DNA of 45,827 nucleotides from an uncultured Candidatus Saccharibacteria bacterium. Lineage in GTDB: Bacteria > Patescibacteriota > Minisyncoccia > Phycocordibacterales > UBA2100. Shown here in pieces: positions 17,288 to 23,118 of the stretch. Location: contig CAYQQI010000002.1 of the NCBI GenBank assembly GCA_964419595.1, forward strand, positions 1 to 45,827, in the 5' to 3' direction. Under the pieces are notes generated by a model, which did not search any database, was not told where the DNA came from, and saw only the letters and a list, made by a program, of their open reading frames with translations. Position 1 is the first letter of the stretch. Each line of letters opens with the position of its first letter. The translations under genes were made by a program, and so were the position numbers.

Positions 17288-17326
17288 AAATGGCATAAAG
17301 CGTTGATTTCGGATAGGATTGTCCGA

Positions 17327-18427
17327 ATGTCTCTGTCTATCGGCATAGTCGGTTTACCGAACGTGGGGAAATCCACGCTTTTTAATGCATTGACCAAGAA
17401 GGGCGTACTGATTGCAAACTACCCGTTTGCCACCATCGACCCGTCGGTCGGTGTGGTTGCGGTGCCGGATCATCGACTGTATGCACTCTCCAAGATGTCG
17501 AACTCACAAAAAACAATTCCGGCGGCCGTTGAGTTCGTCGATATTGCCGGCCTCGTAAAAGGCGCATCAGAAGGCGAGGGTTTGGGAAATCAATTCCTTA
17601 CCAATATCCGTGAGACCGACGCGATCGCGGAAGTCGTTCGCTTATTTGATGACGAAGATATTCACCATGTGGCAGGGCAGGTAGACCCGCGACACGACAT
17701 CGAGATCATCGATATGGAACTTATTCTGGCCGACTTGCAAACTGCAGAGAAGATGCTCGAGCGCGCTGAGCGTGATTCAAAGGGGAGTGACAAAGAAATT
17801 GTTGCAACACGGGACGTGCTTCGTAAGATTGTGCCCGCGCTTCAGAACGGCAAAGCCGCTCGAACCGTGACGCTCAATTCCGATGAAGTACTTGCCGCAA
17901 GGAAACTCCAGTTGCTCACGATGAAGCCGATGCTATATGTACTCAATCGAAAAGCAGGAGTTGTGAATATTGATGCCGAGAATGGTCCTCGCTGGAGAGA
18001 GCTCCAGACGTATTTAAATGAATCCGGGGCGGCACATGTGTTTGTGGATGCCGGCATAGAACACGAACTCTCTGACGTGCACGACGATGAGCGTATGGAT
18101 TTTCGACGAGAGCTCGGCGTATCAGAAGACGGGCTCGACGCGTTGATTAAAGCGGGGTATTCGTTGCTCGATTTGATTTCGTTCTTCACAACAGGAGAGA
18201 AAGAGACCCGTGCGTGGACCATCAAACGGGGGTCTACCGCGCCCGTTGCAGGTGCGGCAATACATACCGATTTTAAGGATAAATTCATCCGTGCAGAAGT
18301 TATCGCCTGGGATAAGCTACTTGAGAACGGCTCGCACTCGAAAGCAAAGGAAAAGGGACAGCTGCGCGTAGAAGGGAAGGAATACGTGGTGCAAGACGGC
18401 GACGTCATGGAGTTCCTCCACTCTTAA
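17327..18427 (+). CDS. ychF: Ribosome-binding ATPase YchF
   Basis: It begins MSLSIGIVGLPNVGKSTLFNALT and has DIAGLVKGASEGEGLGNQFL and a C-terminal TGS-like block KGQLRVEGKEYVVQDGDVMEF. I chose the start at the second Met, 7 nt after TAGGAT. Confidence 0.93.
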   Translation: MSLSIGIVGLPNVGKSTLFNALTKKGVLIANYPFATIDPSVGVVAVPDHRLYALSKMSNSQKTIPAAVEFVDIAGLVKGASEGEGLGNQFLTNIRETDAIAEVVRLFDDEDIHHVAGQVDPRHDIEIIDMELILADLQTAEKMLERAERDSKGSDKEIVATRDVLRKIVPALQNGKAARTVTLNSDEVLAARKLQLLTMKPMLYVLNRKAGVVNIDAENGPRWRELQTYLNESGAAHVFVDAGIEHELSDVHDDERMDFRRELGVSEDGLDALIKAGYSLLDLISFFTTGEKETRAWTIKRGSTAPVAGAAIHTDFKDKFIRAEVIAWDKLLENGSHSKAKEKGQLRVEGKEYVVQDGDVMEFLHS

Positions 18428-18555: not shown

Positions 18556-19521
18556 ATGAATACACACAAAGTAACCCCGAAGGACTTCTTCTTGTGGGCA
18601 GGCGCACTGGTTGGCCTGTACGGAAGCGTCACGTCGTTTATAACGCTCATATTTGCCTACATTAACCAGGCATTCCCTGATGCGCTTACCCAGGGTTACT
18701 ACAACTACGACCCGTACTCCGGTTCCATCCGCTTTGCGATGGCGAGCCTCATCGTGCTCGTACCGGTTACCATTCTGCTTTTGCAGTTGATACGCAGAGA
18801 TATTACGAAGGACCACGGTAAGGCAGACTTGTGGGTCCGCCGCTGGGCGCTGTTTTTGACACTCTTCTTGGCGGGACTTGCGATGGTGATAGACACCATT
18901 ACGCTCATCAATTACTTCTTAGGAGGTGAACTTACGACACGCTTCGTGCTCAAGGTGGTTACCATTCTCTTGGTTGCAGCTGCGGTGTTCATGCACTTCA
19001 TTGCGGATTACTGGGGCTACTGGATAAAGTTCCCGGGCCGCGCTCGCTCCGTTGGTATTGCCGTCGGGATCCTCGTTATACTCTCCATTGTTTCCGGCTT
19101 CTTTATCATCGGTTCGCCGGCGCAGGTGCGTTTGCAGCGATTCGACGGTCAGAAAGTGAGCGACCTACAGAATATTCAATGGCAGATCATCAACTACTAT
19201 CAGAGCAAGGGAGAGCTGCCCGAGTCACTCTCCGAAGTCGCAGATCCGCTCTCCGGCAACGTCGTCCCGAACGATCCGCAGTCCTCAGAAGCATACGGAT
19301 ATCGCGTTACAAGAGCGCCGTACTCCTTCGAGCTCTGCGCCACCTTCAATACCGACTCAACGGCCGATGTACCGAACCCAAGCATTGCACGACCATATGC
19401 GATGGAGATGGGCGTCGAGGGCGAGAATTGGGCGCACGCTGTCGGCGAGAAGTGCTTCAGTCGCACGATCGACCCTGAGCGATACCCGCCCTATCCGAAA
19501 GGCACTCCCACAAAGGTGTAG
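18556..19521 (+). CDS. DUF5671-type multi-pass membrane protein with a C-terminal extracellular domain
   Basis: The N-terminus MNTHKVTPKDFFLWAGALVGLYGSVTSFITLIF and about 6 TM helices are followed by GELPESLSEV..NDPQSSEAYGY. The start is at the Met 6 nt after TATAGT (18544-18549). Confidence 0.65.
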   Translation: MNTHKVTPKDFFLWAGALVGLYGSVTSFITLIFAYINQAFPDALTQGYYNYDPYSGSIRFAMASLIVLVPVTILLLQLIRRDITKDHGKADLWVRRWALFLTLFLAGLAMVIDTITLINYFLGGELTTRFVLKVVTILLVAAAVFMHFIADYWGYWIKFPGRARSVGIAVGILVILSIVSGFFIIGSPAQVRLQRFDGQKVSDLQNIQWQIINYYQSKGELPESLSEVADPLSGNVVPNDPQSSEAYGYRVTRAPYSFELCATFNTDSTADVPNPSIARPYAMEMGVEGENWAHAVGEKCFSRTIDPERYPPYPKGTPTKV

Positions 19522-19549
19522 CATACCCAATCTGCTTCGTTGCGGTTCC

Positions 19550-19599
19550 AAAGCCCGACTCTCACCGTACGTTCAGTACGACTCGAGATCGGGCTTTTC
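19550..19599 (+). terminator. Long imperfect hairpin with flanking A and T tracts
   Basis: AAAGCCCGA (19550-19558) pairs with TCGGGCTTT (19589-19597). Inner helices are TCTC/GAGA and CGTAC/GTACG. TTTT occupies 19595-19598. Confidence 0.55.
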
Positions 19600-19639
19600 C
19601 CGCGCCTCGCATCTCGGGCATTCTACGCCTTGTGGGGCT

Positions 19640-19668
19640 TTAAGTAAGAATGTGAATCATGATAGTCT
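19640..19668 (+). promoter_or_regulatory. Candidate promoter TTAAGT-N17-TAGTCT ending 7 nt before the ATG at 19676
   Basis: The hexamers and the exact 17-nt spacer are read from the sequence. TG lies one base upstream of the -10 (TGaTAGTCT). Confidence 0.4.
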
Positions 19669-19675
19669 TGTCTGA

Positions 19676-19759
19676 ATGAAGTCGTACGATCATAAGAAAA
19701 TCGAGCAAAAGTGGCCCTCCTTCGCTAAAGCTACGGACGGGCAAGCAACGAGTGTATGA
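19676..19759 (+). CDS. 27-codon upstream ORF that duplicates the leuS N-terminus (MKSYDHKKIEQKWPSFAKATDGQATSV)
   Basis: Codons 1-13 match leuS codons 1-13 at 12 of 13 residues. Its TGA stop overlaps the leuS ATG (ATGA at 19756-19759). Confidence 0.35.
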   Translation: MKSYDHKKIEQKWPSFAKATDGQATSV

Positions 19760-22700
19760 AATCTTACGATCACAAAAAGATCGAGAAAAAGTGGCAGCGT
19801 CAATGGCAGACAGACGGCGCATATAAAACAGATACCGATACATCGAAACCGAAATATTATGTGCTCGACATGTTCCCGTATCCCTCGGGCGCAGGATTGC
19901 ACGTAGGACACCCGAAAGGATACATCGCCTCCGACATCGTTGCTCGAAAGAAGAGAATGGAAGGGTATCGTGTACTCCATCCGATGGGCTGGGATGCGTT
20001 CGGGCTTCCGGCAGAAAATTACGCCATCAAAACAGGCACACCTCCGCAGCAAACAACCGATGAGTCGATAAAAACATTTAAATCTCAGATATCGAATCTT
20101 TCACTCTCATACGATTGGGATCGAGAAATAGGCAGTCACCGCCCGGACTATTATCGCTGGACCCAGTGGCTTTTTACGAAATTCTTCGAGAAGGGACTCG
20201 TGTATAAGAAGAAGGCGCTCGTGAATTGGGACCCGGTGGACCAAACGGTTCTTGCGAACGAACAGGTGCTGCCCGACGGTACAGCGGAGCGTTCGGGAGC
20301 GGTGGTGGAAAAGAAGGACCTTGAACAATGGTTCTATAAGATCACTGACTACGCCGATGAGCTCGCGGATAGTTTGGATATTATCGACTGGCCTGAGAGC
20401 ACGAAAGTGAACCAACGGAACTGGATAGGCCGCTCTGAGGGAGCGGAAATTGATTTCGGACTCAAAATGGGTAAGCCGATGAAGTACGTATTTCTGCACG
20501 GATATAAAAGTCATGCGGACCGACCAAGACACAAATGGTATCGAGAACAGCTTGAAGCACTTGGTCACTCGGTAGTAATACCTGAACTCCCAAACACAGA
20601 TGAACCCGACGAAGGCGAGCAGGTTTCGGCTGCGTTGAATGCGGCTGAGCTCGACGAAAACACGATACTCGTCGGTCACAGCCTCGGAGGCATCGTTGCC
20701 ATGAAGGCGCTTCTAAAGTCAGGAAAGAAAATTGCCGGTCTGGTGCTCGTTGCCCCGGCTATGGGACCGTCAAAAGATAATGCTCCGAAACCGTTCCACA
20801 GTACGTTCACATGGGATATCGATCACGAGGCTATACAAAAGCAGACGCAGTACCGCGTGGTGCTTTCTGATCTTCAGGAGGTTCATCGCGTAAACTATTT
20901 GCAAGATCTGTCGGAGAAATTGGAAGCGAAGCTTATAGAGACAAAAGCGGAAGCCGCGCATTTTACCGCAGATAAAGAACCCGATGTATTGATGTGGATG
21001 CGACCGACAATTCGAGTGTTCACGACACGTCCCGACACACTATACGGCGCAACGTATTTAGTACTCGCACCCGAGCATCCATGGGTAACACTCGCGCTCG
21101 GTCACAATACGGTACTTAAAAATAACGACGAGGTGGCGGCGTATGTGGAAGCGTCAAAGAAAAAGACGGACATCGACAGACTCTCAACTGATAAGGAAAA
21201 GACGGGGGTGAGGCTCGAGGGTGTTGAGGCCGTGAACCCGGCTAATGGAGAGAAGATACCGCTGTACGTGGCAGATTATGTGCTCGCTCACTACGGCACC
21301 GGTGCAATCATGGCAGTACCCGCACACGACGAGCGCGATATGGCATTCGCCCGAAAGTACGATCTTCCCATCTCGCAAGTGGTGATGCCGGTATACGGTT
21401 CAGAAGACAAGCGACCGGATGCCGTGTTTCGAGAGACCATCAACGCAGTCGTGCGACACGACGACGGACGTCTGTTATTCCTCAAGTGGAAAGACTACAA
21501 GTGGGTTACGAACGTTATCGGCGGCGTTGAGCAAGGAGAAACATTGGAGCGCGCCGCAATTCGAGAAGTCCTTGAAGAAACAGGGTATCGGGTGCGCCCG
21601 GTATTTGTATCCCCGATAGCTATTGAGTCGCATTTTTATGCCGATCATAAAAAAGAGTGGCGCTCCCGACTTGATACTCCTATCTTGATGGAGCTTGAAA
21701 GTGACCAAAAAGGACCGCTTTCCGAAGCAGAGCGTGCACAACACGACACGGCATGGATGACATACGAGGAAGCGCTCGCGCACGGACTCTTTCATAACAA
21801 CAAACTGGCACTCGACCTCGCGTTGGGCAAGATCAGTGCCTACAGCGCGCCGCTCTACGGCGAAGGGCAGGTGCTCGTAAACTCCGAAGAATTCAACGGC
21901 ATGAGTGTGGAAGAAGGCAGGAAAGCAATTACCGAGAAGTACGGCCGCATAAAGAAAACGTACAAAATGCGCGACTGGCTTATCTCGCGACAGCGGTACT
22001 GGGGCACTCCGATTCCCATCGTGTACGACCCGGAAGGTAAAGCGCACGCGATACCGGAAGAACACTTGCCGTGGCTACTGCCAACAGACGTCGAATATCT
22101 TCCCAAAGGAACCTCGCCACTCGGGAGCTCACAAGAGCTAAAGAAGAGAACCGAGCGGATATTCGGCAAAGGCTGGACCTCGGAAATAGACACGATGGAT
22201 ACATTTGCCTGCTCCTCGTGGTATTTCTTCCGTTTTGCGGACCCGCACAACGACAAAGAATTTACGTCGAAGCAGGCGCTCGAGGACTGGTTGCCGGTTG
22301 ATCTGTACATCGGAGGAGCAGAGCACACAGTGCTTCATCTTCTCTACGCACGATTTTACACAAAAAGTCTTCGTGACATGGGCTACCTCAATTTCAATGA
22401 GCCGTTCCTCAAACTGCGACACCAGGGACTCATCATGGCGGAAGACGGACGCAAAATGAGCAAACGTTACGGCAACGTGATTAACCCTGACGACATCGTG
22501 GAGAGCTATGGAGCCGATACGCTCCGCGTGTACGAAATGTTCATGGGACCGTTCCAAGACTCCATTGCGTGGAATACGCAGAGCATGATCGGCTCTCGTC
22601 GATTCCTCGAGCGAGCGTGGCGCCTTGCGGATAAACTTGCCGAGGCGCCCGATGAATCTCATGAGCGGTTATTGCACCGGACAATCAAGAAAGTAGGGGA

Positions 22701-23118
22701 GGACATTGATGCGTTTAAGTTCAACACCGCTATTTCAACACTCATGATATTTGTGAACGAATCCGAAAAGAAGGGAGTTACTACAGACCAATACGGGCGA
22801 TTCCTGCAGATGCTCGCACCGTTTGCGCCGCATCTTGCTGAAGAGCGCTGGCACGACATCGGTCACATTGAAAGTATTCTTTCGTTCCCGATGCCAGCTT
22901 ACGACGAAGATATGCTTGAGGAAGATACGGTGACTATAGCCATCCAGATAAACGGTAAGACACGCGGCGAAGTATCTCTCCCTATGGGAACAGGAAAAGC
23001 CGAAACCGAGGCAGCGGCTGCGAGCGCAGTGGAGGCGCGACTACTCGGAAAGAAGGTGACACGCATTATCGTGGTGCCCAACAAACTGGTGAATTTCGTA
23101 ATCCAGTCGGAGGACTAA
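19756..23118 (+). CDS. leuS: Leucyl-tRNA synthetase with two inserted hydrolase-like modules (1120 aa)
   Basis: The canonical LeuRS blocks occur in the usual order: HVGH (aa 49-52), NWIGRSEGAEIDF, FTTRPDT, GTGAIMAVPAHD, RDWLISRQRYWGTPIP, KMSKR, and the C-terminal VVPNKLVNFV. Extra segments lie at aa 238-416 and aa 548-700. Confidence 0.95.
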   Translation: MKSYDHKKIEKKWQRQWQTDGAYKTDTDTSKPKYYVLDMFPYPSGAGLHVGHPKGYIASDIVARKKRMEGYRVLHPMGWDAFGLPAENYAIKTGTPPQQTTDESIKTFKSQISNLSLSYDWDREIGSHRPDYYRWTQWLFTKFFEKGLVYKKKALVNWDPVDQTVLANEQVLPDGTAERSGAVVEKKDLEQWFYKITDYADELADSLDIIDWPESTKVNQRNWIGRSEGAEIDFGLKMGKPMKYVFLHGYKSHADRPRHKWYREQLEALGHSVVIPELPNTDEPDEGEQVSAALNAAELDENTILVGHSLGGIVAMKALLKSGKKIAGLVLVAPAMGPSKDNAPKPFHSTFTWDIDHEAIQKQTQYRVVLSDLQEVHRVNYLQDLSEKLEAKLIETKAEAAHFTADKEPDVLMWMRPTIRVFTTRPDTLYGATYLVLAPEHPWVTLALGHNTVLKNNDEVAAYVEASKKKTDIDRLSTDKEKTGVRLEGVEAVNPANGEKIPLYVADYVLAHYGTGAIMAVPAHDERDMAFARKYDLPISQVVMPVYGSEDKRPDAVFRETINAVVRHDDGRLLFLKWKDYKWVTNVIGGVEQGETLERAAIREVLEETGYRVRPVFVSPIAIESHFYADHKKEWRSRLDTPILMELESDQKGPLSEAERAQHDTAWMTYEEALAHGLFHNNKLALDLALGKISAYSAPLYGEGQVLVNSEEFNGMSVEEGRKAITEKYGRIKKTYKMRDWLISRQRYWGTPIPIVYDPEGKAHAIPEEHLPWLLPTDVEYLPKGTSPLGSSQELKKRTERIFGKGWTSEIDTMDTFACSSWYFFRFADPHNDKEFTSKQALEDWLPVDLYIGGAEHTVLHLLYARFYTKSLRDMGYLNFNEPFLKLRHQGLIMAEDGRKMSKRYGNVINPDDIVESYGADTLRVYEMFMGPFQDSIAWNTQSMIGSRRFLERAWRLADKLAEAPDESHERLLHRTIKKVGEDIDAFKFNTAISTLMIFVNESEKKGVTTDQYGRFLQMLAPFAPHLAEERWHDIGHIESILSFPMPAYDEDMLEEDTVTIAIQINGKTRGEVSLPMGTGKAETEAAAASAVEARLLGKKVTRIIVVPNKLVNFVIQSED

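Follow-up and report, generated by a model that had tools for sequence, protein, structure and literature searches.

A dispersed hairpin element and a duplicated leuS start in an uncultured Candidatus Saccharibacteria bacterium

We analysed a stretch of 45,827 nucleotides from an uncultured Candidatus Saccharibacteria bacterium (contig CAYQQI010000002.1 of assembly GCA_964419595.1, forward strand), referred to here as the window, and describe the 5′ end of its leuS gene, which encodes leucyl-tRNA synthetase (LeuRS). The first 13 codons of leuS are present twice at this locus, and the two copies, named c1 and c2, are separated by a short hairpin, element E, which is a dispersed structured element found in many other genomes. 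Both c1 and E belong to an upstream open reading frame (uORF) whose stop codon overlaps the start codon of leuS. The features are, in order:

19640 to 19645, plus strand: weak −35-like hexamer TTAAGT, read from the sequence, 17 nt before the −10 box
19660 to 19668, plus strand: extended −10 box TGaTAGTCT (TAGTCT at 19663 to 19668), ending 7 nt before the ATG of c1; putative leaderless promoter
19676 to 19714, plus strand: c1, the upstream "decoy" copy of leuS codons 1–13 (MKSYDHKKIEQKW), with a LeuRS-like N-terminus kept in 29 of 29 modules
19676 to 19759, plus strand: uORF of 27 codons and a stop (MKSYDHKKIEQKWPSFAKATDGQATSV), consisting of c1, E in frame (PSFAKATDGQA) and TSV
19715 to 19746, plus strand: E, a 32-nt dispersed hairpin element (CCCTCCTTCGCTAAAGCTACGGACGGGCAAGC); covariance-model score 57.7 bits, E-value 1e-10
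19747 to 19755, plus strand: 9-nt linker AACGAGTGT between E and the second start
19756 to 19759, plus strand: ATGA overlap, with the uORF TGA (19757 to 19759) overlapping the leuS ATG (19756 to 19758)
19756 to 19794, plus strand: c2, codons 1–13 of the full-length leuS open reading frame (MKSYDHKKIEKKW)
19756 to 23118, plus strand: leuS, a 1120-aa LeuRS with embedded serine-hydrolase and NUDIX domains (Pfam matches)

The duplicated leuS start and its hairpin

A repeat finder reports a 43-nt direct repeat (19673–19715 and 19753–19795; 84% identity, 80 nt apart), in which the 40-mers at 19676–19715 (ATGAAGTCGTACGATCATAAGAAAATCGAGCAAAAGTGGC) and 19756–19795 (ATGAAATCTTACGATCACAAAAAGATCGAGAAAAAGTGGC) agree at 34 of 40 positions, an agreement that, at this spacing, far exceeds what chance would produce. 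Of the six differences between c1 and c2, five are synonymous (AAG/AAA, TCG/TCT, CAT/CAC, AAG/AAA and AAA/AAG) and the sixth (CAA/AAA) exchanges Gln for Lys. The leuS start repeat has no other copy in the 1.0-Mb genome. An initial annotation, made from the sequence alone, had already described the repeat, these codon changes and the 27-codon uORF with its ATGA overlap, and our recount, codon comparison and coordinates agree with it on all three. The duplication it reported, with copies 80 nt apart, is real, but it missed that the intervening "spacer" is the dispersed hairpin E.

Positions 19500–20000 are spanned without differences by Logan contigs of two metagenome runs from a single study of drinking water, and contigs of two further runs tile the same interval with zero differences, so the leuS duplication is not an assembly artefact; the Logan sample set may include the source sample of the window assembly. 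Neither a leuS variant without E nor a joint was found in the DNA contigs, which are blind to rare variants.

E is the main predicted structure of the uORF/E region, which is not unusually structured (z = 0.17). Its stem pairs CCCTCC (19715–19720) with GGAcGGG (19735–19741), and at the tip G19724–C19731 and C19725–G19730 close the loop TAAA. The 5′ arm resembles the anti-Shine-Dalgarno sequence CCUCCUU, and the 3′ arm (GGAcGGG) is Shine-Dalgarno-like. Reading the leuS 5′ regions of 40 relatives, we found the nucleotides between the two copies to be near-identical across genomes, third codon positions included, though the LeuRS proteins of the window, of G020 (same genus) and of G039 (another family) are only about 55% identical. 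The 5′ half of E, CCCTCCTTCGC, lies outside the core pattern used for searching and is conserved in all contexts. Moreover, three stem positions left free in the pattern covary in 116 of 122 copies, CC[T]CC occurring with GG[A.]GGG and CC[G]CC with GG[C.]GGG. Because of this covariation across copies we regard E, on comparative evidence, as a selected hairpin with the stem CCCTCC/GGAxGGG, an internal loop and a GC-NNNN-GC tip. Rfam gave nothing relevant for E or the region, either at the gathering threshold or at E-value <= 10, and neither did a full-text literature search for the E sequence or its peptide. E is apparently undescribed, and we found no publication of the element or of the architecture. 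We attribute the duplicated leuS start to this mobile hairpin, whose 32 bases sit directly after codon 13.

Copies, sites and possible movement of the element

A 21-nt core pattern of E (at most 3 mismatches) occurs in 61 of 401 genomes of the order, with about 86 matches compared to about 12 for the reversed control. With the covariance model, E was detected in 79 of 101 genomes of the genus, at up to 40 copies each, and three copies were found in the genome studied here; the other two lie at C50:5145–5181 (plus strand, an ATG directly after it) and at C65:3402–3439 (minus strand, behind a terminator-like hairpin). An exact-pattern scan of species-representative genomes returned more than 120 E stretches across many phyla, including Patescibacteria, Acidobacteriota, Proteobacteria, Bacteroidota (with an isolate among them), Verrucomicrobiota, Myxococcota and Planctomycetota, and no match in viral contigs.

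Copies of E are intergenic, nested in the loop of another E, arranged in tandem arrays, in frame within genes or, very often, directly upstream of gene starts. Apparent in-frame copies are present in metG, mnmA, an ABC ATPase gene and, at another codon, leuS of relatives. Related, E-like hairpins follow leuS codon 3 (G003) and codon 6 (G014), and there the start is duplicated too. Other genes show further designs. At rpmE, a −10 box is followed after 7 nt by E and then directly by the ATG, and a uORF is absent. The dnaE modules read TATACT-N6-ATG TCG-E-linker-ATGA, with the ATGA overlap in three of four and no duplicated N-terminus. At gatB, codons 1–13 or 1–15 are duplicated around E in two genomes, one of them with an ATGA overlap, and a pattern search for further gatB modules returned only these two. 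A tRNA gene is affected as well: at locus L054 (G278:C40, 1409–1627), the promoter of tRNA-Cys and the first 24 nt of the gene are present twice, on either side of an E copy at the junction of a 121-nt tandem unit, with a degenerate E-like hairpin in front and an intact tRNA-Cys behind.

Nested copies represent exact insertions in the loop of another E, with stacked 5′ and 3′ arms (L117, L123, L139, L147, L158 and others). Tandem arrays occur in part in non-Patescibacteria genomes, and L178, L185, L191 and L204 are further loci listed with nested or tandem copies. A conserved unit recurring in several genomes was seen at L167, L220, L221, L236, L238 and L242, in which a TTGCAA…TATAAT promoter is followed after 7 nt by E, a spacer of about 25 nt and a reversed second E-like hairpin; it could be a small transcribed unit.

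The frequent position before gene starts could mean that the uORF and hairpin form a regulatory leader, whose paired anti-Shine-Dalgarno-like and Shine-Dalgarno-like arms would control reinitiation or the stability of the mRNA according to temperature, ribosome flux or the presence of a binding protein, and that the leuS module is kept for regulation. Conservation across phyla extends to both the loop sequence and the stem pairing, and in a crude count 27 of 111 copies lie in sense orientation within 40 nt upstream of a gene start versus 8 of 111 in antisense. Moreover, several neighbours belong to tRNA metabolism or translation (leuS, gatB, trmD, mnmA, rpmE and tRNA genes). However, E also occurs inside open reading frames, nested, in tandem and in both orientations, which is the behaviour of selfish DNA, it is found at leuS in only 7 of 116 genomes of the genus, and the unremarkable z-score of the region argues in the same direction. 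A T-box or leader-peptide attenuator was rejected, since the uORF contains zero Leu codons, Rfam and T-box searches gave no match and no terminator-like site or U-tract lies on the plus strand across the uORF and E; the remark in the initial annotation that the uORF, having no Leu codon, is not a classical Leu attenuator is borne out. Taken as the reason for the module, regulation appears quite unlikely.

As the origin of the duplications at gene starts, a simple target-site duplication was rejected, because the duplicated stretches measure anywhere between about 3 and 86 nt and each of them begins near the start. Either a long target duplication or unequal recombination of one E copy with another could have produced the start duplication, and the latter is supported by two tandem cases, L054 and L326. 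At L326 (Ga0209610_1077488, 660–770) the leuS start is triplicated as c-E-c-E-c, and the identity of the last two units marks it as a recent tandem amplification of E together with the start.

The best candidates for moving E are small GIY-YIG nucleases. An E-like hairpin lies directly upstream (within about 40 nt of the start) of four of the approximately 17 small GIY-YIG genes examined, and the 58.7 kb around GIY-YIG genes hold 12 model matches. The genome studied here carries small (about 80–100 aa) Slx1/UPF0213-like GIY-YIG genes at C49:5671–5877, C49:4856–5068, C39:4234–4452 and C13:846–1052. A −10-like hexamer precedes the start by 6–10 nt in the genes at C49:5671, C39:4234 and C13:846, and the gene at C49:5671 stands behind a tRNA- or tmRNA-like CCA end and a reverse-oriented E-like hairpin. 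G471, G453, G001 and other genomes of the genus encode up to 16 Y1_Tnp-like (IS200/RAYT-type) proteins of about 220–260 aa; their genes are not flanked by E, which lies within about 1 kb of only two among 20 Y1_Tnp loci, a weak association.

leuS modules in relatives and a model for their expression

Genus matches combined with a metagenome scan yielded 29 distinct leuS modules, in which E follows Lys-Trp codons and which belong to very diverse LeuRS lineages. Seven of the 116 genus genomes and G039 show the layout with E, and the uORF frame is open through E in all modules; this is the alignment of relatives by which the initial annotation had proposed to check the duplicate and its frame. 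G020 has the same arrangement as the window (MKRYDHRKIEKKW-ASFAKATDGQTAEV and a stop, then ATGA), G039 carries an in-frame version (MEKNYDHKEIEGKW-PASAKASDGQAKE-IYDHRTIEAKWQ…), and G427 has E at leuS while its sister G018 lacks it. Since E is a dispersed element and the layout recurs, the duplication is a recurrent, element-associated architecture and not a one-off event.

The reading frame and the second start codon are linked. All 20 out-of-frame modules keep the c2 ATG, whereas all nine in-frame modules, including those of G039 and of G427 from the genus itself, have lost it. In the 20 out-of-frame modules the distance of the uORF stop from the c2 ATG is between −5 and +11 nt, with an ATGA overlap in 13, and where the uORF of genus modules ends at ATGA the linker is 9 nt long and variable in sequence. 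The nine in-frame fusions indicate that an extended LeuRS is viable, and many linkers are A-rich, as if a frameshift or slippage in the linker might join c1 and c2 into a LeuRS with a 26-aa N-terminal extension. Such slippage is extremely unlikely: a conserved slippery heptamer is absent, the window linker AACGAGTGT has no A-run, the shift that would be needed varies between modules (+1, +2), and in G505 the stop lies upstream of the ATG.

The candidate promoter of the initial annotation, ending 7 nt before the upstream ATG, could be located, and its −10 box is kept in relatives. A TGnTAnnnT box stands 6–10 nt before the first, or only, leuS ATG in relatives with and without E. Of 25 modules, 19 have a TANNNT box, often with an upstream TG, 5–12 nt ahead of the c1 start, and none of 20 has one ahead of the c2 ATG. 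On a genome-wide scale, TANNNT peaks at −12 to −15 of first ATGs, the box lying 6–9 nt upstream in about 19–22% of crude open reading frames, and the Shine-Dalgarno signal is weak; from both patterns, leaderless mRNAs seem to be common in this organism.

The box before c1 only, the link between frame and ATG and the constant linker together suggest a start of both transcription and translation at c1, translation of E, and use of the c2 ATG exactly in those modules whose frame is broken. In the model we propose, E lies within the first part of leuS, immediately behind codon 13; codons 1–13 flank it on both sides, and a leaderless-type promoter stands before c1 only. Transcription would start at or a few nucleotides from the c1 AUG, where 70S ribosomes would initiate; they would translate c1 and the hairpin (as PSFAKATDGQA), terminate at the UGA overlapping the c2 AUG and reinitiate at this AUG to produce LeuRS, whose synthesis would thus depend on the uORF. 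A decoy start and a stop-restart junction would in this way keep an essential gene working despite an insertion in its coding region. Reinitiation at ATGA overlaps is documented (PMC6728339). The initial annotation had suggested a duplicated leaderless start with termination-reinitiation, and the comparison of modules, in both box positions and ATG retention, lends this idea support. We consider it moderately likely that a leaderless start duplicated and split by E, with termination and reinitiation, explains the leuS layout.

Several points weigh against this model. A generic sigma-70 scan called no promoter before c1, so the −10 pattern of the lineage itself was used instead, and none of the public RNA-seq runs checked for the locus holds the leuS start. 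In part, the short distance between the uORF stop and the c2 ATG arises automatically, because the second codon begins with A and A/T-rich out-of-frame sequence stops early, and the in-frame modules may lack the ATG owing to different duplication boundaries rather than to its dispensability. Strict conservation of the c1 amino acids is unneeded for ribosome loading, since dnaE modules suffice with an "ATG TCG" decoy; the stop-restart model is in this respect incomplete. Finally, in module L328 c2 is degenerate (YDDFLKDGGEGKW) and c1 canonical, which fits poorly with c2 as the only N-terminus.

Some of these observations would equally suit an inert c1-E relic, with leuS expressed from c2 through its own transcription start, situated in E or behind it, or through internal initiation at the Shine-Dalgarno-like arm, and with no role for the uORF. 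The empty generic scan before c1 favours this alternative, as do the arms of E, the 3′ arm being Shine-Dalgarno-like and the 5′ arm CCUCCUU-like, and the rpmE loci, which indicate that genes can be expressed with E alone in front. In the window, however, 14 nt separate the end of the Shine-Dalgarno-like arm from the ATG, a greater distance than normal Shine-Dalgarno function allows. The distribution of −10-like boxes, the loss of the c2 ATG in every continuous frame, the conserved linker length and a c1 that is not decaying also speak against a relic, and we regard it as unlikely.

Conservation of c1, recombination and related systems

In the eight modules from whole-genome searches (seven of the genus and G039), the ratio of nonsynonymous to synonymous differences (pN/pS) is 0.05 among c1 copies and 0.14 among c2 copies, compared to 0.12 among ordinary LeuRS N-termini of relatives without E at this position. 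Between c1 and c2 of the 29 modules, synonymous sites are saturated (pS about 0.93) and pN is about 0.17, while pN/pS for c1 against c2 is put at 0.17 as well; differences by codon position, counted in codons outside the search pattern, amount to 31/35/89. This coding pattern of substitution across modules agrees with the purifying selection on a translated upstream copy that the initial annotation had suggested from a single pair, and c1, judged by these substitutions, is not decaying and stays a perfect LeuRS N-terminus despite saturated synonymous sites. Gene conversion between c1 and c2 was rejected because of that saturation, and an antisense open reading frame behind the codon-periodic conservation because the one antisense frame that would be compatible is interrupted by a TGA opposite GAT CAT. 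The conservation of c1 may result from resetting by recombination at E or from a function of its own.

Mosaic modules point to such recombination. In L318, L338 and L348, which share near-identical E and c2 but have different upstream genes and a c1 diverged by 18%, identity falls from about 99% to 82%, and from there to unrelated sequence, precisely where c1 meets E, and a second breakpoint lies about 100 nt into leuS. The c1 of G427 is nearer than its c2 to the N-terminus of the E-less sister G018. Furthermore, within residues 1–235 of the window LeuRS (19756–20460), residues 1–30 are 0.56–0.63 identical to three E-free genus members, while from about residue 31 the sequence is closer to other families (G028 and G037, up to 0.82); the LeuRS groups with G028 in a tree, which suggests a chimeric LeuRS with recombination just downstream of E. 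Being near-identical in diverged genomes, E acts as a crossover point, and c1 may have been renewed repeatedly from functional alleles via such crossovers.

Another way to account for LeuRS-like purifying selection on c1 would be ribosomal bypass, in which a fraction of ribosomes hops from the c1 UGG to the c2 UGG over the 80 nt that include E, perhaps beside stop-restart. T4 gene 60 and the Magnusiomyces "byps" of yeast mitochondria likewise contain a hairpin-forming insert between matched take-off and landing codons in an essential gene. At leuS the two codons match (AAR UGG; AAG UGG in the window) and the hairpin starts at the A-site codon, and bypass would also explain L328. Unlike gene 60 and byps, E is an open frame rather than an untranslated gap, the downstream part is not start-less, as c2 keeps its ATG in 20 of 20 out-of-frame modules, and neither a stop nor an obviously slow codon follows take-off, the next codon being CCC. 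E in frame inside metG, mnmA and the ABC ATPase gene indicates that ribosomes translate it, c2 is as constrained as ordinary N-termini, and the dnaE modules have no duplicated N-terminus at all. Bypass is not needed to explain leuS expression, and we hold it to be very unlikely; if true, E-type hairpins would be a widespread bacterial source of programmed translational bypass. In the module of L328 and L329 (Ga0208904 and Ga0222637 contigs) the degenerate downstream copy reads MNTKKYKIYDDFLKDGGEGKWQKKW, and the upstream decoy has the canonical YDHKKIEAKW.

The surroundings of the module hold a few further features. The inserts of LeuRS (20467–21855 in the window) place the serine-hydrolase domain at residues 245–406 and NUDIX at residues 559–677, flanking the editing domain. 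At 19552–19595, 3′ of a DUF5671 gene, a long imperfect hairpin is followed by TTTTCC; similar sequence is intergenic in relatives (L013, L014, L017), and the hairpin is probably the terminator of the upstream gene, although the scan tool makes no call there. Two genes upstream of leuS lies ychF (17303–18427), and its proximity is probably a coincidence, even if a work cited in PMC12641178 has YchF affecting the translation of leaderless mRNAs.

In its layout the module is closest to MIRUs (mycobacterial interspersed repetitive units), short dispersed and apparently mobile repeats which insert at start codons and carry an open reading frame whose stop overlaps the next start (−4, ATGA), a translational coupling thought to preserve expression of the invaded gene (PMC12548453). 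E is likewise multi-copy and variably present among relatives, both in the genus as a whole and at leuS. MIRUs insert exactly at the start, as the dnaE and rpmE copies of E do, whereas E in the window follows codon 13. In addition, E differs in its size (about 32–37 nt), its covarying hairpin and its occurrence in many phyla, and it lies within the coding region of a gene whose own leaderless start is repeated ahead of it, the decoy being conserved as protein-coding. The junction itself resembles ATGA/TGATG coupling, in which stop and start overlap and a downstream cistron without its own Shine-Dalgarno sequence depends on ribosomes from the upstream open reading frame (Huber et al. 2019, PMC6728339). 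Unlike in ordinary ATGA-coupled cistrons, the upstream "gene" is here a 27-codon decoy made of a start copy and a hairpin, on what is presumably a leaderless mRNA.

Among hairpin repeats linked to nucleases, the NTS/SRM repeats belong to the Ssn family of GIY-YIG single-stranded DNA nucleases (Chenal et al. 2025, PMC11893778) and, like E, are short multi-copy hairpins across phyla; they are associated with small single-domain GIY-YIG genes. No SRM is described as lying within a coding region or at a start codon (PMC11893778). E further differs in a much larger loop and in its partial association with the nuclease genes; membership was rejected, as 0 of 123 E copies fit HGTCWYN(0-2)YYVSBRHN(0-5)WNVSBRGN(0-2)RNCYNB on either strand. 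REP/RAYT systems also consist of short dispersed imperfect palindromes, and Y1_Tnp-like genes are numerous in several E-rich genomes, but E lacks the 5′ GTAG signature at the stem foot and REPs are extragenic. The apparent in-frame copies in metG, mnmA, the ABC ATPase gene and leuS of relatives recall the Rickettsia palindromic elements, reportedly described by Ogata and colleagues in 2000 as small palindromic selfish repeats in frame within protein-coding genes. Those elements are about 100–150 bp long and restricted to their genus, and we know of none that duplicates gene starts or creates stop-restart junctions.

For annotation, our analysis means that gene starts in E-bearing genomes can be mis-annotated and that short "conserved uORFs" may be footprints of mobile elements. 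As a natural coupling device free of a Shine-Dalgarno sequence, the module may also be of interest for synthetic biology. E recurs across bacterial phyla and marks recombination breakpoints between diverged alleles, and the conserved decoy poses the question of recombination resetting or recoding. Overall, the leuS locus would illustrate how an essential gene survives when a mobile element enters its coding region, here in bacteria dependent on leaderless mRNAs that make sparse use of Shine-Dalgarno sequences: the old start would be kept as a ribosome-loading decoy, and the displaced gene would be translated by stop-restart.

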